Positions 429 through 56,403 of a DNA stretch of 64,000 bases are shown here, piece after piece. The notes below the pieces were generated by a model, which worked only from the letters and a program-made list of their open reading frames with translations, ran no database searches and was not told the DNA's origin. The translations under genes were made by a program, and so were the position numbers. Source of the DNA: Octopus sinensis (Eukaryota); contig NC_043003.1 in the NCBI RefSeq assembly GCF_006345805.1, positions 93,248,001-93,312,000 of the forward strand, given 5' to 3'. Each line of letters begins with the position of its first letter. Positions within the stretch are counted from its first letter, which is position 1.

Positions 429-2951
429 GGGTTTGGATGGTCTACCCTACGAGCTTTACAATTGTATGCCAGACTTGTTTGGAGATGTCTTGGCGGCGGT
501 GTACTGCAACTGGCAGCAAAACGGGAGCATTCCTGGTTTTGTGAGCCGAGGAGCCGTAACACTGCTGAGGAAAGATCTAAACAAGGGAAATGTAATAGAT
601 AACTTTAGGCCCATCACTCTGCTTAATGCAGACTTGAAAATTTTGGCCAAGGTGCTAGCCAAGAGGTTGGCGCTTGTCATCGAGAAACTGGTCGACAAGG
701 CGCAAACATGCGCCGTGCCGGGCCGGACCATCCATGACAACTTCTACCTGATGCGCTACATCATAGACAGGGTAGTTAACGAACATGGCATGGGTGGGGC
801 GCTGATCAATTTGGATCAATCGAAAGCTTTCGATAGGGTGGACCATCGATACTTGGAGGCAGTCCTCAGAGCGGCTGGCTTCGGTCCCGTCTTCCGCGGC
901 TGGATAGCCGCTTTGTACAGAGGCATCCGTTCGGTAATTCGCGTAAATTGACATCTATCAAGACCTTTCGACATCGCACGTTCGGTCCGTCAGGGATGCC
1001 CCCTCTCGTCGCTTCTATACGTATTGACTCTCGAGCCATTATTGCGGAAGCTGGCAACTTTGAGGGGCATCCCGTGAAAGATGGGATGCAGGACGAGCGT
1101 GTCTGCATACACGGACGACGTCACCGTCATAGTGTCTAGCCACGAGCACATCGAGCAGGTCGGCGAGACACTGAAAAACTACGAAACGGTGACAGGAGCG
1201 AAAATCAACCGGGAAAAGTCAGTGGGCTTGCGACTAGGCACCTGGAGAAGCAAGCCCATGCCGTCCACCAGCGCCTCCATCGTGGGACGCTGGACCGACG
1301 GCCCGGTCGAGTTGCTCGGGGTCTGGTTTGGTCCGGACCTCCAAGTGGAGAAGAACTGAAACGAGATAACGTGTAGGGTGGTCACTCTCGCCCGGCAATG
1401 GGCCGAGAGGAAACTGTCCCTAAAAGGTCGGGCGGAGGTGGTGAACACGTACATCGCGTCCGTCATCTACTACCGCCTGACTGTCGTGCCTTGTCCCGAC
1501 TCTACTATCACCAAACTAGAACGCATTCTCTTTCGCTTCTTGTGGAAAGGATGCGTCCCGATGGTCAGGCGATCCATTTGCTGTCAACACCCGTTAAAAG
1601 GGGGACTGGGCATGCCGTGGTTGATGATGCGCAGACACGCGCTGAGACTGCGACATCTCAGGCTCTTCGTAGACGACGGTGAACAGGTGTCGTCGCCGTT
1701 TGTGAGGCACGCTTTCCCGCAGCTCGTTTCCATGACCGAACTGCAGTCGTGAATCAAAAAGAGGCCGAGGAAGGGCGAATGGCACCGCGAGTGTCGCGTT
1801 GCTCTCAAGCAACTCTGTCGTCCTGGGTCGACCTTGAGTGACTTCATCACAACCAAAGCATTCTATAGGGGATTAGTGGAGGGGAGGTACGACGACGAGC
1901 TCGGGGCGAACCTGGACGTCGATGAGGAGTACCTGACCTGCCTGTTCGGGACGACTTTCAGGCCAGGGCCCATGGACAACTTCCAGAGATCCCTGGCCTG
2001 GCAGTGCTACCGAGAAGCGCTACCCGTTCGGGATAAGCTCTACAGACACGGCTCGAGAAACACGAGGCCGACCTGCCCGAGATGCGGTCAGAGCGACGAA
2101 ACCGTTCTGCACGCACTCGTGCAGTGTCCAACAATTTCCGACCTGTGGGCTTATGTCGAACAACTGCTGTCACGTGTGGGACGAGTCTGTGTATCAGCTG
2201 AGTCTATCGTCAATATTGTCGCGCCTCCTTCCTTCAAACGGGAAGGAAGAGCTATTTTCATCATTCTTGTGGCTATGGCGAAAGAATGTATCTGGTGGAC
2301 GCGTCTGAAAGGATTGGAGACAAACACTTTCCTCTCTGGTCAATCTCTCATCAACTTCTTCAAGTACCACTTGAAAAGGAAAGTGAGAGTAGAGAGGCAA
2401 GTTTTGTCTAGCGAATGTTTTAAAAAAAGATGGGTGAATGTAGCAGGGATGGCACGTATGAATGACGAAGCCACCTTGAGCATAATCCTATGAACCCAGA
2501 AATTGAAAACAGAGGGTTACCCACTTGCAAACAAATGTAGTAACATATAACAATATTGACCAAGGTTACCGTGGTCTTTTTCGTAGGCTTTTCTTCCCAC
2601 GGATAAACCTTACTTGTTTTCCCTTTTACACCATACATCATAACACTGTGATACACGATCCCTATTGATCGTTTTTTTTTCCTCTTCCCCTTTTTATCCC
2701 CTTTTTCTTCTTTTTTCATTTCTCTTTTCTTTTGTTCCTTTTCCTTTTCTTCTTTTTTTCTTTCTTTTTTTTTCTTTTTTAAATATTTTTTTTTTTGCTC
2801 TTTTTTTCCCTTTTACGATCCTTTTTGATCGAAAACCTACGCCACTTTTTTTTGTTTCTTTTGTTTTTTGTTTTTTTCATCCCCCAAAAGAAAAGCTCTA
2901 CCTTGTAACTTGTCCCATCTGTGTGCAGCCCTGTGTGGCCAATAAAGAAAC
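429..2951 (+). mobile_element. 5'-truncated Tx1/L1-clade non-LTR retrotransposon (ORF2 RT plus C-terminal zinc finger, 3' UTR)
   Basis: One frame (ORFs at 433, 1081, 1378, 1834) gives GLDGLP, NFRPITLLNADLKILAK, LDQSKAFDRVDH, RQGCPLS (988-1008), YTDD (1108-1119), GGLG and CPRC..ETVLHALVQC. A T-rich 3' UTR ends AATAAAGAAAC at 2941-2951. Confidence 0.93.
430..2493 (+). pseudogene. Tx1-like ORF2 reverse transcriptase pseudogene
   Basis: No frameshift; four in-frame TGA stops at 949, 1075, 1357 and 1750. Confidence 0.9.
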
Positions 2952-4391: not shown

Positions 4392-5038
4392 ATTTCAGTC
4401 ATTTGACTGTGGCCATGCCGCAGCACCGCCTTGAATATTTTTTAGTTGAATAAATTGACCCCAGGACTTATTCTTTGTAAGCCTAGTACTTTTTCTATTG
4501 GTATCTTTTGCCGAACCGCTAAGTTACGGGGACGTAAGCACACCAACATCGGCTTTCAAGCTATGATTGGGGTACAGACACAGACGCATACACAAACGCG
4601 CGCGCGCATGCTAACACACACACACACATACACACATATATATTTCTTTATTGCCCACAAGGAGCTAAACATAGAGGGGACAAACAACGACAGACAAAGG
4701 GATTAAGTCGATTACATCGACCCAAGTGCGTAACTGGTACTTTATTTATCGACCCCGAAAGGATGAAAGGCAAAGTCGACCTCGGCGGAATTTGAACTCA
4801 GAACGTTACAGCAGACGAAATACTGCTAAGCATTTCGTCCGGCGTGCTAACGATTCTGCCAGCTCGCCGCCAACATACACACATATATACATACGACGGG
4901 CTTCTTTCAGTTTCCGTTTCGTAAATCTACTCACAAGGCTTTCGTCGGCCCGAGACTATAGTTAAAAACAACTGCCGAAGATGTCACGCAGTGGGACTGA
5001 ACCCGGAACTTTGGGAAGCTAGCTTCTTACCACACATC
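4392..5038 (-). mobile_element. tRNA-derived CORE-like SINE (family A) interrupted by a family B SINE
   Basis: Tail portion at about 4392-4580 and head portion at about 4890-5038 match the other family A copies. Confidence 0.8.
4643..4872 (-). mobile_element. Meta/MESC-like SINE (family B) monomer with Tx1-like tail and 17-bp TSD
   Basis: Head ggcggcgagctggcagaatcgtt, B-box gagttcaaattc, core gtcgactttgcctttcatcctttcggggtcgat, tail ending gggcaataaagaaat. TSD acatacacacatatata at 4626-4642 and 4873-4889. Confidence 0.88.
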
Positions 5039-10382: not shown

Positions 10383-10992
10383 AGGGCGGCGAGCTGGCAG
10401 AATCGTCAGGACGCTGGGCGAAATGCTTACCGGTATTTCGTCGGCCGCTACGTTCTGAGTTCAAATTCCGCCGAGGTCGACTTTGCCTTTGCCTTTCATC
10501 CTTTCGTGGTCGATTAAATAAGTACCAGTTACGCACTGGGGTCGATATAATCGACTTAATCCCTTTGTCTGTACTTGTTTGTCCTCCCTGTGTTTAGCCC
10601 CTTGTGGGTAGTAAAGAAATAGGTATTTCGTCTGCCGTTACGTTGTGAGTTCAAATTCCGCCGAGGTCGACTTTGCCTTTCATCCTTTCGGGGTCGATAA
10701 ATTAAGTACCAGTTACGCACTAGGGTCGATGTAATCGACTTAATCCATTTGTCTGTCCTTCTTTGTCCTCTGTGTGTTTAGCCTCTTGTGGGTAGTAAAG
10801 AAATAGGTATTTCGTCTGCCGTTACGTTCTGAGTTCAAATTCCGCCGAGGTCGACTCTGCCTTTCATCCTTTTGGGGTCGATTAAATAAGTACCAGTTAC
10901 ACACTGGGGTCGATATAATCGACTTAATCCGTTTCTCTGTCGTTGTTTGTTCCCTCTATGTTTAGCCCCCTGTGGGCAATAAAGAAATAAAA
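10383..10992 (+). mobile_element. Family B SINE trimer (head plus three units of about 185-190 bp) bounded by one 18-bp TSD
   Basis: Junctions aaagaaata|ggtatttcgtc at about 10622 and 10806. TSD attatacaatatgRattt at 10365-10382 and 10993-11010. Confidence 0.9.
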
Positions 10993-11086
10993 ATTATACA
11001 ATATGAATTTTGTTAACTATTTAGTTGTTTTTACGTACATGGAAGTATTTCTCAGCTTCCGATTACATTAAATATGTAAATAGAAC

Positions 11087-11186
11087 NNNNNNNNNNNNNN
11101 NNNNNNNNNNNNNNNNNNNNNNNNNNNNNNNNNNNNNNNNNNNNNNNNNNNNNNNNNNNNNNNNNNNNNNNNNNNNNNNNNNNNNN
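11087..11186. other. Assembly gap (100 N)
   Basis: Run of N. Confidence 0.99.
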
Positions 11187-13399: not shown

Positions 13400-15600
13400 T
13401 TGTGGAATAATAACAATCACCTATACATGCAGATCTCCACTCCCGGACAGATCTCATTCAGATGTATGGCGAAAGTATCAAGGGCACACAAAAACTACCC
13501 CAATGGTTATCAATTGCAACTACTCTTTTCATTTCCTAAAAATAGTTAAACCACCCTTGCTAAAAATTACTGCCCAATAGCCAACCAGAGCATCATGTAC
13601 AAATTGTACATTGCGTGTCTCAATCTGTTCTTGCAGGATCATTGTGCCACCAATATCAACATTATAACACCTGAGAAAGCTGGAGGAAAGAAGAAGGTGT
13701 GGGGACTGTATAGAACAGCTACTAATTAACAAAATGATCCAGGAAACACTAAAAGATTGCAGTAACTTAAATGTAGTGTGACTGGACTACCAGAAAGCTT
13801 TTGATAGTATAATCCATGGGTGGATTATCAAGGTTTTACAGTTAGCCAAATTCTCATAACCACTAGTGAGTGCTGTGAACATGTGACAAAGGCTTGGCAC
13901 ACCTCTTTGCTTCTTAGGAGTGATGAGGAACAAATTAAGATAGCATTCACTACCTAAAAGGTATCTTTCAGGGTGATATTCTGTCGATGTTGCTCTTTGT
14001 TCTCTCACTAAACCCACTACCATACCTGTTAACAAAACTTAGTGATCATTGAAATGAACCCAGAGGTGTTTCCCATCTTTTCTTTGTCGACGACCTGAAA
14101 CTGTATGGGCCAAATATCGACCGCATAAAAAATCAATTTGACGTCATTGCTCGATTTTCTAGACATTGGAATGGAATTCTCTGAGTTCAAATGTGCATAA
14201 CTGACAATGAAACGTGGAAACGTTGCGCTCTCTGAATACTTAAAAATAAACAGTTTGACTATACAACCTCTAGTCAGGTGACAATTATAGATATCTTGGA
14301 CAAGGTGACAATGTCAGATATGATGGACCCATAAATGAGGAGAGGACCAGAAATGAATACCTCAGAAGAGTAAAGAGGGTATGGCAATTAGAACTCTCAG
14401 CTTACAAGCATATTGCCCGCTACACCTTCGCAGTGCCTGTATTCATGTCTAGGTTTGGCTTTCTGAATTGGTCACTATAAGAACTCAATGAGATAGAAGT
14501 TCGAACTCGCAAACTTCTCAGTGTTAGAGAAAATATTAACATTAATGGAGATGTAGATACGCTATTCTTCCCAAGCAAGGATGGTAATCGTGGTCTCAAA
14601 TCTATATTGATGTCCTATGAAGCACATATTGTAACATTGAATCAACATTTGCGGCAAAGGAAAGAGATCAGTAACTCTTTTGCCCAAGTTAGTGAGCATG
14701 AAATCAACAACATAATTAGGATTGCTAATGAACTTGAAGAGAGGCATGAAATAAGAGCTGATACAGACATCTCTTCGAGAAGCATTAGTAAAATCTGTTT
14801 ATCAGAAAAACAGAATTAAAAGAAATGGACCGGTTCGCTGAAAAGGTAGTACATGGCTACTTGGTACGTAAAACACAAAAGATTGACGGGACTGATCATA
14901 CGCTTGGCATGGAATGTCGATAAATATATGACATTCCTCTTTGAAAGCTACACCATGCAATTTAAGAAGAGATTCCCACCAGGTACCTACATCATAAAAG
15001 GCAGAGAACGTTGATAGACAACAAAGGTAGGTTGTTTAAGGCTAAAACGGAAAAGATGAACCTAATTATTGCCAACTGCGAGAGAATGCCTTTCAGATAT
15101 TTCCCCACTGAGGTATGATACGGTGGCCAGAACAGCCTGGAATAAGATAACAAAAAAGAAAAAAAAACCTCAGACGAAATTGACCATATCAAGACCGATG
15201 GGTAAAAAGAATATCGGTGAAACTTAAAAATTAAAACAGCCACTAAGTTATAACACAACTGGTCAGATATTGTTGCGTGGGACCACAAGGAAAAGATATG
15301 TTCTGCTGTGGAAATCAGCTGCCATCTGAACACCAATGTGGTTAGAAAAATACAAGAGAAAAAGGACATCCATGGATCATTGATAAGAAGTTTGCAAATC
15401 CAGTAACCAAGATACACTTTCAGCTTCATACCTATTATCATTGGAGCAGCAAGATTAATACCAATCCGGCTAGAGCAAAGTATGGCTGAACTTGGGATGT
15501 TAATGAGAGACTGCAAATCCTTAATTTATACGTTACAAATGATCGCGATATCTGGGACTACAAAAATCTGCAATACCTCCTTGAGATTTAAAGGATGATA
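13400..15600 (+). mobile_element. Decayed R4/Dong-like (restriction-like endonuclease) non-LTR retrotransposon
   Basis: Broken frames give NVV*LDYQKAFDSIIHGWI, GIFQGDILS, SHLFFVDDLKLY, YRYLG, DTLFFPSKDGNRGL and NWSDIVAWDHKEKICSAVEISC (PD..D/E-type nuclease region). Confidence 0.85.
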
Positions 15601-19569: not shown

Positions 19570-19954
19570 AAGAGAGAGAGAGAAAGAGAGAGATAAATAG
19601 AGAGACACACATACACAGAAACACATTTATGTATACATATATGAAGTAATGTATGTATGTAGTATGTATACACACACACACACACTGGTGTGTGGGTGTT
19701 ATAGAGCAACTATGAAGAATTGAGGTGAATGTTCTAATAAATAAATAAATAAATAAATAAATGAACAGGTAACTATTCTATGAATAATATGAATGAATTC
19801 GTTAAATATATAATTGCTGTTGTTGCGATTGCTGTAGTAGCTATTGTTGTTTAGCATTAGGTCAACCATGATCGAGCACAGCTATGAAAAAAGGAATTCT
19901 AGCTATGACCATTCCATCTAACTTGCTTGAGGGATTATCCAGGATTACATTGTT

Positions 19955-20535
19955 CTTTTCTACTGTAGGCACAAGGCCCGAAATTTTGGGGGATGGGTCC
20001 AGTCGATTAAATCGACCCCAGTATGCAACTGGTACTTAATTTAATGACCCCGAAAAGTTGAAAGGCAAAGTCGACCTCGGCGGAATTTGAACTCAGAATG
20101 TAAAGACAGACGGAATACTTATTTCTTTACAACCCACAAGGGGCTAAACACAGGGAGGACAAACAAGGACAGACAAACGGATTAAGTTGATTATATCTAC
20201 CCCAGTGCGTAACTGGTACTATTTAATCGACCCCGAAAGGATGAAAGGCAAAGTCGACCTCGGCGGAATTTGAACTCAGAACGTAGCGGCAGGCGAAATA
20301 CCTATTTCTTTACTGCCCACAAGGGGCTACACACAGAGGGGATAAACAAGGACAGATAAACGGATTAAGTCGATTACATCGATCCCAGTGCATAACTGGT
20401 ACTTAATTTATCGACCCCGTAAGGATGAAAGGCAAAGTCGACCTCGGCGGAATTTGAACTCAGAACGTAACGGCAGACGAAATACGGCTACGCATTTCGC
20501 CCGGCGTGCTAACGCTTCTGCCAGCTTACCACCTT
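19955..20535 (-). mobile_element. Family B SINE trimer; last unit has an alternative tail
   Basis: Two units with Tx1-like tail are followed by a unit ending cccccaaaatttcgggccttgtgcctacagtagaaa. Confidence 0.88.
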
Positions 20536-20633
20536 CTAAGACTACGTAATTGGTTAAAAACAGATTTCGCTGTTGTGTCCAGTTGATTGCGTGGCCACTG
20601 TTATTGATATTATTATTGTGGTTGTTGTTAAGA

Positions 20634-21065
20634 CAGGGAGCCGGCAGAGTTGTTAGCATGTCAGACAAAATGCTTAACGGTATTTCTTCCAGTCAGGGCG
20701 GCGAGCTGGCAGAATCGTTAGATCGCCGGGCGAAATGCTTAGCGGTATTTCGTCTGCCGCTACGTTTTGAGTTCAAATTCCGCCGAGGTCGACTTTGCCT
20801 TTCATCCTTTCGGGGTCGATTAAATAAGTACCAGTTACGCACTGGGGTCGATATAATCGACTTAATCCGTTTGTCTGTCCTTCTTTGTCCTCTCTGTGTT
20901 TAGCCCCTTGTGGGTAGTAAAGAAATAGGTATTTCTTCCGGTCATTTTTATATTCTGAGTTCAAATTCCGCGGAGGTCAACTTTTCCTTTCATCCTTTCG
21001 TGGCGCATCGATAAGGTAAGCACCAGTCAAGTGCTGGAATCGATGTAATCGAATCCCCCACCAAA
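20634..21065 (+). mobile_element. Older family B SINE containing a younger full-length family B SINE (20696-20926)
   Basis: Host sequence ggtatttcttccRgtca is duplicated at 20679-20695 and 20927-20943. Confidence 0.85.
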
Positions 21066-21194
21066 AATATAAAATAAAAGTACTTTTTACCCTATGCCCA
21101 AAATTGAATTCACTATTGCCGTTGGTGTAATTGTGGGTAATATATATATATATATTAACAACAGAGCTAGTATTAATAAAATAAATGCGCCCTT

Positions 21195-21422
21195 TTGAAG
21201 CCTAGCCAGGCTCATGGGCCCGGTTTCTATGGCATGTGTTCCCCAGCTGGACGGGACGCCAGACCATCGCAGCGTTACTCATTTTTGCCAGCTGAGTAGA
21301 CTGGAGCAACGTGAAATGAATGTTTTGCCCAAGAACACAACGCGTCGTCCGGTTCAGGAATCGAAACCACAATCTTACGATCATGATGCTGACACCCTAA
21401 CCACTAAGCTACGCGCCTCCAC
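21195..21422 (-). mobile_element. tRNA-derived SINE with CORE-like centre and a distinct tail
   Basis: Minus-strand head gtagcttagtggttagg...tttcgattcc, then gttcttgggcaaaac and gcgatggtctggcgtcccgtccag. Confidence 0.8.
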
Positions 21423-21464
21423 AGGTAGTATTAATACTAAGAGGTAATATTTATACCCTCTCTA

Positions 21465-21640
21465 AGGTGGTGGCGGCATTTTGTCCTGCTTTATACTCTG
21501 AGTTCTAATTCCGCCGAGGTCGACTTTGCTATTCATCCTTTCGGGGTCGATAAAATAAGTACCACTTGAACAGGAAGGTCGATGTAATCGACTTATTCCT
21601 CCCTCGAAGTTGCTGGCCTTGTGCCAAAATTTGAAATCAA
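21465..21640 (+). mobile_element. Family B SINE with alternative tail
   Basis: Meta-like core plus ttgctggccttgtgccaaaatttgaaa. Confidence 0.75.
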
Positions 21641-22198
21641 TATTTATGCCCACTTAAACGCGTATATCTTGTTAGAACAAACAATAGTGCAGTAGATACG
21701 GTGAGAAACTCTGACTTAGGCTTTTGGTGCAAACTGCTCCCTTGTTTATATTGTTAACAGGGAGACTAAAAGCTAATGTGAGAATTTTTCTCGTGGTTTC
21801 TACAGCAGTACAGTTTGTTCTAACAGAGGAAATCCACGTTTAAGTTGGCCTAAATATTACTTCGCGAAATTTTTAGTGTCCGAGCAGCAGCATATGAAAA
21901 GAAGATTGATAAACTACAGATACAACACACAGTGAATCACTTTGGGTAGACATCAACACCCGAGACACTTTTTAGGTGTGGTCATCCATTCATTTAAGAC
22001 TTAAAAAACCTGTTTTCTAACTTGACAGAGAAACAAAAAGAGTTCGTCGAGAACAATTTGCTTTTTGTATTGTATAGCTCTATTTATGACATATCGAACT
22101 ACGAATAATGGTTTAGCTCAGTGGTTCTTAATTTTTTCTGTAGCGGCCCCACTTTTAAATAGTTGTTATGCCTATCACCCACTTGAGTGGTGACTGAG

Positions 22199-22388
22199 GT
22201 GTATTTCGTCTTCCGTTACGTTCCGAGTTCAAATTCCGCCGAGGTCGACTTTGCCTTTCATCCTTTCAGGGTCGATAAATTAAGTACCAGTTATCCACTA
22301 GGGTCGATGTAATCGACTTAATCTCTTTGTCTGTCCTTGTTTGTCCCTTCTGTGTTTAGCCTCTTGTGGGTAGTAAAGAAATAGGTAT
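22199..22388 (+). mobile_element. Headless family B unit
   Basis: Starts gtatttcgtc and ends gggtagtaaagaaataggtat. Confidence 0.85.
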
Positions 22389-22591
22389 GACGACTAAACT
22401 AATTTAACATGGTAATTTATAAATTATACTCTAAAAATGGATAGTAAAAGCTTTTAATAATGAAATGGTAAAAAATGAATAAAGACACAAGTTGTAAATT
22501 TACTTTATACATTGCAAGTGAAGTGAATGACTTCCTTGTGTCCCATTTTATTTTAATAACCACCAATAGTTTTATCATGTACAATATAATT

Positions 22592-28930: not shown

Positions 28931-30103
28931 GGGGGGATATTATTTGGTAAAATGAAAAGGGTGCAAAGAGTGTTAGTGTGAAAGAAATGTAGTGGCATAG
29001 TGAGTGGGCTGATATCAGGGAAGGGGGGAATATCGTTGTGTTAGCGACAAATATGGAGTGGCAGTGAGATGTTAACGTTAATACAGCTGTCATTTACGGA
29101 TATACATGCGACGCTGCATACATACTTTCGTACATACATAGATACACACACACACACTACACGTACACACATGAACTACACATAACTAACTTTTAAAACG
29201 CCGAGGAAGGGAAAGGTGTGTGGATGTGAGGAATACGTGGCTTTAAGGAGAGAGGGGAAAGGTGGCTTTTCTGCTGTCCATCGCAAAGAAACACACACAC
29301 AGACAAACATACATATGCATACATATGTATACATACATAGCACATACATGCATACACACATACACATGTCTACTATACACCGTTTTAAACTCACTACTAC
29401 CTGTAAAAATTGCATAGTCTTCTCTTTCTACCTTCCGAATTAAGATTTTACCAAACTCGATGCTGCCTTCATCTCCTAGGGTTGATAATATACATATCTG
29501 TAATATATTGTAATCCATTCAATCCATAACTCACTCTCGCTGCTATAAAATTTACCATTGATCCCGATGAAAAGAAATCATAGATATTTATACTGAATGG
29601 ATTTCTACGCCGTAGACCAAATAAATAAATTTAAGACATAAAAACAGCAGTTTGTAGCTTTTTTAGTTAAAACCTGCCCGTGAGATGAACTTTAATGAAA
29701 TCTATTGAAAATTCAAATCTAGGTTATAGATTAAACAGACTATATAATATTCAAACAATATAAATGCATGAAAAGTTGAGCGGTGAATCTGTTAAGGTTC
29801 AATTAATGAAGGGAAAACTGAATGCATTGTTACTGAAAATAGACGTATATTATTTATGATCCCATTCATATTTAAAGTATTCATACTGGGGATCGTTATC
29901 TATGATTTTGTTTGACCGAATGCAAAACCAATATTTCGGGATGGGCGGATGGTACATTCATTTTAATCGACTTTCTATATTATAATGGAGAAAGCTGCTT
30001 ATTAATTAGGTATGTAACAATTACTAAAAGTACTAAAAGAAACCATTTATTAAAGGGTTGACCGTATGGAAATATTTTAATAAATTCATGTTCTAAGAAA
30101 TTT

Positions 30104-31030
30104 GTTTCTTTATTGCCCATAGGGGGCCAACGTAGAGAGGACAGCACAGCCTGATTGGGTTCTGACATATAAAAGATAATAAAAATTTATAAACGCTTAC
30201 AATAAAATCAGATGAATTACAGTCGGATGAGATACAATACAAAAGACAAAATTACACATGCACAATGAGATAGAAAAATAGGTTACGCTCCGACCCCACG
30301 AGCCCTGTTCTGCTACCGGTACCTTTTTGTTCAGCCTTATGGCACGTTCACGAGGAGTCTTTCACACTCAGCATTCTCGCTACACGCATCCATCTGTCTT
30401 TAAACATCCTCTCCGACAGGCATATTCTCTCCAGCCTCACTTTCCTTTTCAGGTGAAAAGTAAAGAACCTCACCAACTCGAGACCGGAGATGAAGTTGCC
30501 TGTCGCCATTCCTTTCTTTCTCGTCTTCCATATCGCCTCTTTCACAAACGCTACTACTGCAATTCTTGCCTTCTTTCGTTAGGAAATCTGGCAGATCAAT
30601 TTTTTAAATTGAGTCAGACGACAGCTGTACTCTTCTTAAGTCCGACAACAGATGTTCCACATAAGTCCACACTTCTGACACTTCCGGACACTGAACAATA
30701 GTGTGCAGGACGGTTTCCCTTTTCTCATCACATCTTGGACAGGCCGATGGACCAGGTTGGCCGTGCCTGGTGAGCTTATCCCGAACGGGTGAGGCTCCTC
30801 GGTAACATTGCCAGGCCAGAAATTTTTGGAAGTTATCCAAAGTCCCCGGCCCGAATGTCCTTTGGAACAGACTGTCTAACTGGTTATCATCGAGACCCAG
30901 TGCCTTCCCCAGAGCTTCATCATTTCCAGCCTCTACCAACCTGCTATAGAAAGATGCGGTGGTACCAAAACCGCTGGCATTACCCGAGCGAAGGAACAGT
31001 AGCAGGGCTTTACGGCACTCCGTAAACCAT
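30104..31030 (-). mobile_element. Second Tx1/L1-like LINE 3' fragment (different subfamily)
   Basis: DNFQKFLAWQCYRGASPVRDKL..CPRC..ETVLHTIVQC and FFTFHLKRKVRLER are homologous to ORF 1834-2493. The 3' end is gggcaataaagaaac. Confidence 0.88.
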
Positions 31031-31283
31031 TTTCATTTGCAAAGTCTCTCACTTTCTCTTTTAAGTCTTAATTCACTTTTTATGTAAATGTAATGTAAAA
31101 ACATTATTTATGAAATGAAAATTTTTTAAATACCTGTGCAATTTTTGAATGTGGGATAGCTGTGAGAAGAGCCTGGAGAGACGGGTAATTACTATTAGAA
31201 GATGAGGAGAAAAATAACAAAATGTTACCAACAAGTACTCGAAACTTTCACCTTATTCAGTTTCCAAACACAACTTCAACAGT

Positions 31284-38739: not shown

Positions 38740-40450
38740 CATCTTAAAACGAAACTGATGGAGATTGAGAAAAATCTGAAACACTTCTATGAAAAAGAGA
38801 GAACAGACAAAGAAGCCTAAGTTTCAGAAAATATAAAATCAAAGCCTAAAACTTTCTGTAAGTTTGCCAGAAAAAACTGCCTACAGAGTAGGGCCACTTC
38901 TCCAAAAAGATGGTTTCCTCACAGGAAACCCAATGAGTATAATGAAACACTGAATGATCAATTGAAAAGTGTTTTCCCCTCACACTTACAGCACATGCAA
39001 CTCACCAAACCTGACAAACTTCCGTGCAGGTTGAAGGAAGCAGCAGCGTGGATGCCAAAGACTATAAACCTATCCCTCGGACGTTGCGTATCAGCATAGT
39101 TGTGGGACGGAGAGCCCGAAGGAAACTAATAATGTTCCTGGAAGAAAATCACTTGCTGACTGACATCTGGCATGTTTTCCGACCAGGAAGAAGCTACCTG
39201 ACACAGCTCTAACAACACTATCACTGGGTATTGAAACAGTATTCAATAAAGTCGATCATGGAATTATATGTCACAAACGGCATGATTTCGGCATATTTGG
39301 AGAGTGGCTATATAATTTTCTGCAAGATAGAAATAAGGTAGCAGTAGCCAACGTGGTTATCTCCAAGGAAACACAAATGATGAGTGGTGTGCCACAGGGT
39401 ACTCTCTTGGGGCCACTACCTTTTTATCGTGGCCCTCTCAGATATGCCCTCATCCACTCAGCTACCATCACAATCTATGCATATGGTACAAACTTTTCCC
39501 AAGTAATACAAAATCCTGAAGATGGCATGCACCTAAAACAAAAGTTAGATGCAATATATACGTGGGCTGACAACAATAATACGTATTTTAATACTGGAAG
39601 GTTTCCAAGCTTTACGCTATCAGCAGACAACGTTAAATGCAATACAGACAAAATACACAGGAGTTGGAAGGATCGCAGTTCCAGAATCACAATCAGTCGG
39701 TAACCTGGACATTAATATGAGTAGTGATGCATCCTTCCATGTGCATATTATTAAGATGGTAAGAAAAACAGGCGGTTGATCGAATGAATTCTTAGAACTT
39801 CCAGAACAAAGGTACAGGAAATCACTATACTCTGGAGGATATTTATCCTAAGCTGTCTTGACTATTACTCCCAACTATGGTCACCACACAGTGTGAAATT
39901 AATAGCAGAACTCAAAGCGCCCCAACGAAACCACATGAAAGAGATATCCTCAATGCAACAAATTAGCTACTGGGAAAAACTCAAGAGGTTAAGATTTTAC
40001 TCTGTGGAACGAAGGCGGGAAAGATCAATAGCAATATCCACCCGGAGATCCTGAAAGCACTTGTCTCAAACATTGGTGTTGGAAGTTATATAAACGCCAG
40101 AAAAGGGAACAATTGCATATTGTCTAAAATCCTTCTTCTGTCGTCAAAATGCAAGACCAGGCACTGCAATAGCTTGGTGTTCAAGGGCCCACTGCTCTTC
40201 AATATCCTATCGAAGGATCTGAGAGACCTACATGGTGTGGAGGCAGATATCTTCAAAATTAAACTGGATCATCTATTGTCAAGAATCCCAGAGAAGCCAA
40301 CTTCACGACAGGAAGAAGAAATGAAGGCGCTAGCATCAAATTCCCTCATTCAACAAATACTAACTATTAAAGAATTAATGAAGGGTTAGCAACAACAGGT
40401 GGCGGTGCTCCAGCATGATCACAGCCTTTGAGCTGTAACTCGGAAAATAC
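38740..40450 (+). mobile_element. Decayed CR1-group LINE (RT and C-terminus)
   Basis: HVFRPGRSYLTQL, KVDH, SGVPQGTLLGP, LDYYSQLWSPH, YWEKLKRL..SVERRRE, GPLLFNIL..FKIKLDHLL..IP; stop at 40387-40389. Confidence 0.85.
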
Positions 40451-56053: not shown

Positions 56054-56403
56054 GAATTCCGCCGAGGTCGACTTTGCCTTTCATCCTTTCGGCGTCAATT
56101 AAATAGGTACCAGTTACACACCGGGGTCGATATAATCGACTTAATCCGTCTGTCTGTCCTTGTTTGTCCTCTCTGTGTTTAGCCCCTTGTGGGTAGTAAA
56201 GAAATAGGTATTTCGTCTGTCGCTACGTTCTGAGTTCAAATTCCGCCAAGGTCGACTTTGCTTTTCATCCTTTCGGGGTCGACCTTGAAAAGATAAAGGG
56301 CAAAGTCGACCTCGGCAGCATTTGAACTCAGAACATAAAGACGGATGAAATATCGTTATGCATTTTGCCAGGTGCACTAATGATTTTGCCAGCTCACCGC
56401 CTT
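56054..56403. mobile_element. Family B dimer fragment fused to an inverted family B copy
   Basis: Junction gaaata|ggtatttc at about 56207; orientation switches at gtcgac, about 56278-56283. Confidence 0.8.

Follow-up and report, generated by a model that had tools for sequence, protein, structure and literature searches.

An octopus SINE subfamily that appears to insert at one fixed position within its own relatives

How tandem arrays of short interspersed elements (SINEs) with fixed junctions come to exist at many loci is unsettled; papers on reptiles and clams offer recombination or re-insertion without a direct test, as far as the available parts of their texts go (PMC10702118; PMC11481361). 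The locus at positions 20634–21070 of the octopus DNA analysed here (hereafter the window, 64,000 nt of microsatellite-rich animal DNA) resembles a trapped intermediate. It raises the question of whether a young SINE copy entered an older relative at the very position at which units are joined in the arrays and, if so, what guided it there. The tails of this SINE, designated family B, occur in two forms, a and b, and this polymorphism is a built-in control that makes the question testable on existing assemblies.

The family B unit is approximately 231 nt long and non-coding; about 10 units occur in the 64 kb, and family copies make up 4.8% of the window. Its head carries box-like motifs, which may be A and B boxes, and may resemble tRNA-Ser; ARAGORN reported no tRNA gene (0 genes), and Rfam gave 0 matches to an E value of 10. 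A ribozyme or retrozyme was also rejected, there being no Rfam match to E 10 within 19900–22500. Target-site duplications of 17–18 nt were present at 3/3 full-length elements tested, one of which lies in microsatellite-like DNA. The copy number is very high, with 207,419–503,738 contigs aligned in each of three runs. Pattern scans returned 0 matches in viral contigs and 0 in genome contigs, and the 119 loci returned by a metagenome pattern scan were discarded as chance matches, none of them (0/119) having similarity to family B. A second, unrelated SINE family is present at 21190–21420 (minus strand), with a middle part that we presume to be CORE-like.

Read along the plus strand, the nested locus opens with the head of the older host SINE up to the insertion site (20634–20678, delimited by alignment). 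There follow the left 17-nt copy of a host-specific target-site duplication (20679–20695), a young full-length family B copy with a type-b tail (20696–20927) whose own internal site lies at 20744, the right copy of the duplication (20928–20944), the first 5–8 bases of which may represent primer homology, and the remainder of the host, consisting of its body and a different tail (20945–21070). The original prediction had placed the young copy at 20696–20926; its start stood, and its end had to be moved to 20927. The host-specific duplication that it had described was borne out. The two 17-mers differ at 1/17 positions, an A/G difference at a CpG, and their last nine bases, which are specific to the host, agree at 8/9, for which the chance is about 4e-4 at 30% per base; the pair is therefore a real target-site duplication. 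The internal 17-mer of the young copy (20744–20760) differs from the left and right copies at 7/17 and 6/17 positions, respectively, all of them beyond base 8, and the duplicated bases are thus those of the host. Because the duplication opens with 8 bases common to host and element, its true length is 9–17 nt and the cut may have been made anywhere within those 8. A DNA hairpin as the target was rejected, in that the young site folds (−5.1 kcal/mol) and the host's left site at 20679 does not.

The duplication starts in the same alignment column as all of the array junctions, as had been claimed from the letters alone. The host had been taken for an older copy of the same family. It is an older relative with another tail rather than an old copy of the same subfamily: in the alignment it is 73% identical overall and carries the other tail, and it departs from the family B majority at 17/93 positions of the shared part, against 1/168 columns (a single private difference) for the young copy. 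The flank and head of the host were also found in organism C, with 8 other letters over 20543–20676 (134 positions); hence the host is old and the insert is young. None of the contigs of the runs mapped spans 20634–21070.

Several other loci in the window carry the same joint. The trimer at 10384–10989 (plus strand; junctions at 10622 and 10806) has a head, two type-b units and a last unit of type a, and a single 18-nt duplication with 1 mismatch (at about 10365 and at 10993) flanks the entire array; an assembly gap of 100 N follows just downstream, at 11087–11186. On the minus strand, the array at 19960–20535 (junctions at 20302 and 20119) is made up of a head, two type-b units and then the body and tail of another subfamily, and this body is joined at the same site at 20119, with host-type letters appearing within approximately 14 nt of the junction. 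A partial dimer with a type-b tail (56055–56282, plus strand; junction at 56207) is cut by an inverted older copy, and its last unit is unreadable; that older minus-strand copy (56279–56401) meets the cut unit at a TCGA palindrome to form an inverted pair. A headless type-b unit lies in non-family DNA at 22200–22388 (plus strand). It begins exactly at the site, for which the chance under even truncation is about 2%, and ends in tail plus GGTAT, where one G is read most simply as element-derived; no second copy of its flanks showing the pre-insertion state was found. The free monomer at 4641–4872 (minus strand), with a type-a tail and a 17-nt duplication in TA/TG-rich DNA, served as a control. 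In an older copy at 21465–21640, the start seems to run straight into the part immediately preceding the site, as though an internal piece of the head had been deleted.

What stands last is a type-a unit at 10806, a unit of another subfamily at 20119 and, at 20928, the old host. Identity between adjacent type-b units is 92.4% and 90.2%, the best cross-locus pairs reach 95–96%, and whichever of the two type-b variants comes first in one array comes second in the other. Since two arrays end in a different subfamily and the units are closer to those at other loci than to their neighbours, the arrays look, from their sequences, like hosts into which further copies have nested. The mixed variants in opposite order ruled out local duplication, a fixed dimer master and rolling circle on the same RNA. 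The long, locus-homogenised arrays of SINE-derived satellites also differ from what was found here, namely arrays of 2–3 units with neighbours 90–92% identical and cross-locus identities of up to 96%. Two findings count against pure nesting. In 6/6 type-b units the base-17 variant goes with the body variants of that same unit, and one duplication surrounds the whole trimer; template switching would predict such linkage, and nesting would need the 5' join to fall before base 17.

The nine B tails of the window comprise seven of type b and two of type a, which are approximately 90% identical to each other and are split perfectly by three alignment columns, with a fourth column agreeing in 6/7 of the type-b tails. 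All of the type-b tails (7/7) run into GGTAT (six) or AGTAT (one), as against 0/2 type-a tails, both of which end freely (in the monomer at 4641–4872 and in the last unit of the trimer at 10384). Six of the seven type-b tails are joined to a family body, while the seventh, at 22384, enters unrelated DNA. By locus, 4/5 of those carrying a type-b tail join a family body at the same position. The association of tail type with junction has a Fisher p of 0.028, for tail types defined post hoc and five loci that are not independent. The motif GGTATTTC occurs nine times in the window, 8/9 inside family copies, and five of those eight are junction products; the shorter GGTAT is found within the family in 9/89 cases and outside it in 80/89. 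The nested copy is therefore no one-off, given the 6/7 type-b tails that run into a family body, and the site-specific self-targeting that had been proposed is upheld by the 4/5 loci joined at one position and by the junction in contigs of three runs (see below). That the targeting is limited to one tail subfamily, type b, is a point absent from the original prediction.

A candidate partner of family B is present in the window as a 5'-truncated, stop-broken L1/Tx1-type LINE (430–2951, plus strand), which lies in a (TATC)n run. Its last 41 nt are homologous to the B tail (alignment score 46–50 against a maximum of 29–30 among 1000 shuffles; blastn E 2.6e-4). The 3' fragment of a related LINE at 30104–31032 (minus strand), in AT-rich DNA and not in a SINE, has the same kind of tail, and its end resembles the B tail similarly. 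The domains of the LINE at 430–2951 are RVT_1 and zf-RVT, and full-length relatives have an endonuclease domain (PF03372), RT and zf; among named relatives, its protein comes closest to those of Argonauta (73%) and cuttlefish (58%), which points to an octopus as the likely source, and the closest solved protein of a relative is L1 ORF2p (E 8e-68, versus 6e-22 for R2). These tails suggest that family B is a SINE mobilised by an L1/Tx1-type LINE, with this one as the candidate partner lineage. Of the Tx1-type partner predicted originally, the tail shared with an L1/Tx1-type LINE was recovered, and no Tx1 name was found among the homologues of the window LINE, whose place in the Tx1 subclade is putative. 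Insertion of such LINEs at the SINE motif, which had been put forward as a check, was seen in 0/2 LINE copies of the window, a tiny sample; a partner family with a type-b tail could occur elsewhere. In the available part of the Octopus vulgaris annotation, recent activity is listed for L1-Tx1 families (PMC13282606).

The signal CAATAAAG is retained in type-a tails and in both LINE ends, which do not lie at the SINE site, and for this reason type a is probably the ancestral tail form. AATAAA (window 20915–20921, and the other type-b tails) has been lost in type b and kept in type a and both LINEs; its loss may have changed the formation of the RNA 3' end. The LINE at 430–2951 is flanked on both sides by (TATC)n and the related copy at 30104–31032 lies outside a microsatellite, suggesting for the former a putative microsatellite preference like that of Kibi or Koshi. 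Element end and first flank bases form a short inverted repeat at 20920–20937 (6–8 nt) and at 30095–30110 on the minus strand (6 nt). Decayed fragments at 39164–40386 and 14481–14816 resemble, by eye, reverse transcriptases of other LINE clades.

Mapping at 85% likeness drew on 4 of the 24 listed runs (contigs of X1, X17 and X9 and raw reads of X21). The same junction recurs in the contigs of three public runs. Alignments clipped after tail plus GGTATTTC, and continuing like a unit, were found in at least 1002 contigs of X1 and at least 255 of X17, contig counts being lower bounds; no such clip was present among the six loose ends listed for X9. Among the 15 joints listed (there are 1889 more), those from the tail end to an internal position led only to the site, in 37, 19 and 2 contigs of X1, X17 and X9, respectively, and tail-end joints to other positions were single contigs. 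Tail plus GGTAT followed by a head was seen in at least 34, 21 and 0 contigs in the same order. A joint of a full-length nested copy at site 20679 was absent from the 15 listed. Among 12.9 million raw reads of X21, 13 aligned and one of these contained the junction. The joint 20676→20947 (at least 9, 4 and 5 contigs) was left uncounted, as it may represent ordinary old-family copies.

Measured by depth, which was capped, favours reference-like contigs and does not give copy numbers, type-a letters account for 11–19% in X1, 14–25% in X17 and 49–76% in X9; relative to tail depth, read-through depth comes to 0.78, 0.56 and 0.26%. Tails are 7-fold less abundant in X9; once this is allowed for, its two junction contigs fall short of X1 by only about 1.4-fold. 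The ratio of alignments crossing 20939 to depth at 20946 is 0.29, 0.27 and 0.04 in X1, X17 and X9, and the crossing alignments hint, indirectly, at additional cases in which a type-b tail runs into an old-type body. A head variant at 20486–20495 (minus strand) heads the array that ends in another subfamily; at its mapped places, 20739 and 20744, it takes up 11–15% of depth in X1 and X17 and <1% in X9, hinting at replacement of the host head. The joint 20697/20761, in which the head start lies beside 20761 on the opposite strand, occurs in at least 18, 7 and 8 contigs of X1, X17 and X9; possibly these are antisense insertions near the same site.

What directs type-b copies to this position? We give roughly even chances to an account in which reverse transcription is primed on family copies by the 3' copy of the internal GGTATTT that type-b RNA carries, and in which this match as a rule also makes the 5' join. 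This account starts from what was seen directly, that is, type-b tails running into GGTAT, insertion at one position, one host-specific duplication and mixed arrays; the priming and joining steps are what we infer. Subfamily b would be terminally redundant: a founder type-b copy at the site in a relative would yield a transcript reading past AAGAAAUA into GGUAUUU, and perhaps further. After a nick by the LINE endonuclease, the freed strand would pair with the RNA extension and prime reverse transcription, and family copies would be the preferred targets as holders of most of the GGTATTTC sites. The upstream target end could then anneal to the cDNA, either at the motif's internal copy or within the head. 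Such 5' pairing would drop or replace the head, giving seamless head-unit-unit arrays and headless tandem units. At 20634–21070 the 5' join would have failed, because 7 of the last 9 bases of the host 17-mer are mismatched to the cDNA, leaving the full-length copy and the duplication visible. Every new junction would be both a new target and a new read-through template, resulting in a feed-forward loop.

Priming by RNA-target complementarity of 2–18 nt is documented for the L1 system, and Alu monomers retain a few bases of the next monomer (PMC5322556). With 80/89 GGTAT outside the family, pairing over 7–8 nt or more (or an endonuclease preference) would be needed for specificity. Counting against homology priming are the junction at 22384, which shares only 4–5 nt, and the fact that all of the GGTAT could be target-derived. 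The original prediction had offered either an endonuclease or homology priming; the latter fits better, because neither LINE copy (0/2) and neither type-a SINE end (0/2) is at the site, in a comparison where the type-a ends carry the same LINE-derived tail and which does not decisively separate the two mechanisms.

The endonuclease alternative, which we regard as unlikely while still the most serious competitor, holds that subfamily b is moved by a Tx1-type LINE whose sequence-specific endonuclease cuts GGTAT(TTC) within the SINE superfamily; this partner would be marked by the type-b tail, the RNA would stop at the tail, and every GGTAT would be target. The 7/7 type-b ends are explained equally well by it, and the partner LINE is indeed L1/Tx1-like. 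Tx1L, Keno, Kibi and Koshi are target-specific, and the SINE SINEU-3 sits in one repeat in 313/347 copies with a 16-nt duplication and tandem re-insertion (PMC4494074). The position of the LINE at 430–2951 in (TATC)n and the presence of TAT within the first bases at 5/6 kinds of insertion site also point this way. Apart from the empty counts at the site (0/2 LINE copies, 0/2 type-a ends), the difficulties are that both LINEs bear the type-a signal with types a and b being about 90% identical, that no LINE-like loose end lies near the tail start among the six listed per contig run, and that the hosts diverge widely after base 8.

More doubtful is a reading in which the 3' end of the element (AAGAAATA) is the complement of top-strand bases lying 2 nt inside the site and lets the RNA end dock on DNA or on a second SINE RNA, to which the reverse transcriptase jumps, some arrays then arising in one event by RNA-to-RNA template switching. 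The complement (TATTTC) extends over 6 nt in family B and 8 nt at 20634–21070, lengths that random flanks reach in 0.8% and 0.15% of cases, and the second LINE end also has 6 nt (1%); the complementarity, however, was found post hoc and is ≤3 nt at 4/7 ends tested. Enclosure of the whole trimer by one duplication, the tie of base 17 to the body variants (6/6 type-b units) and the opposite-strand joint 20697/20761 (at least 18, 7 and 8 contigs) speak for such jumps. Type a has the same last bases, yet it is absent from the site; RNA-only switching cannot yield a host-specific duplication in a host shared with organism C; and none of the three readable last units is of type b, the dominant type. 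Least probable of all is that the arrays arose in the DNA itself, whether by unequal crossover, by slippage or by gene conversion with an array as donor, and that the nested copy is a coincidence: unequal recombination and re-insertion have been proposed for SINE arrays in bivalves and reptiles (PMC11481361; PMC10702118), and conversion could give the young-type head on an old body seen in the array ending at 20535, but the closest matches of the units lie at other loci rather than next door, host letters set in no further than 8 and about 14 nt from the junction in two different hosts, a 17-nt duplication is the mark of retrotransposition, and the same junction recurs across loci and runs.

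To return to homology priming, its wider form is that of a self-guiding subfamily, which would have captured its own interior bases at the RNA 3' end, find its targets within its own superfamily through RNA-DNA pairing, with no need of a specific endonuclease, use the motif to seal the 5' end, and have become dominant in one lineage; by such a route dispersed SINEs could in general turn into tandem arrays with a fixed junction. This we put forward tentatively, at somewhat less than even confidence. In R1Bm-type site-specific LINEs, read-through target sequence in the RNA pairs with the target, and Alu tandem insertions and Chironomus Cp1 exemplify repeated insertion at one site. These differ from family B in being autonomous elements or in having poly(A) or non-self targets. 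The octopus SINEs OK, OR1 and OR2 were reportedly described by Ohshima and Okada in 1994, probably from the same genomes; family B may be one of them, and that paper may already describe the family or its tandem form. Those SINEs are cited in PMC4824008, and an identity for family B was not found in the available parts of PMC4824008 and PMC4758252.

The closest parallel is SINEU-3 of crocodilians (Kojima, 2015; PMC4494074), discussed there alongside Tx1 LINEs, which like family B prefers one site in a repeat, makes a duplication of about 16 nt and inserts sequentially in tandem. Its target is another element (Mariner-N4_AMi) and its tandem copies sandwich a duplication; family B, on the other hand, has its own superfamily as target, the majority of its units lack a head, and targeting is confined to a single tail subfamily. 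The by-products described in PMC5322556, tailless retropseudogenes and internally primed Alu monomers, are scattered, whereas here homology would direct a dominant subfamily onto its own relatives and build arrays. The TSD-(SINE)n-TSD elements of blood clam (PMC11481361) and the SINE-derived satellites of squamates (PMC10702118) share with the present arrays a headed first unit, internal units cut at a fixed position and one duplication around the array, with the clam internal units additionally lacking the tail end (PMC11481361); the available parts of both papers mention neither a self-targeting subfamily nor last units of another subfamily. Site-preferring SINEs, complementarity priming and head-unit-unit multimers are thus already known singly (PMC4494074; PMC5322556; PMC11481361; PMC10702118). 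No report of a self-targeting SINE subfamily was found in the literature searched, Repbase and the 1994 octopus SINE paper aside; the main text of the 2026 Octopus vulgaris annotation (PMC13282606) has 0 occurrences of 'nested', and the available supplement has nothing on self-targeting. By analogy, family B works like a target-specific SINE, and its membership of the group directed by a Tx1 endonuclease is putative.

If homology of the RNA end sets the target, a few bases would suffice to change the specificity of a non-coding element, which would find shelter in its own relatives. If an endonuclease sets it, a LINE lineage would have adapted to a SINE as its target. Either outcome would be of interest to transposon specialists.
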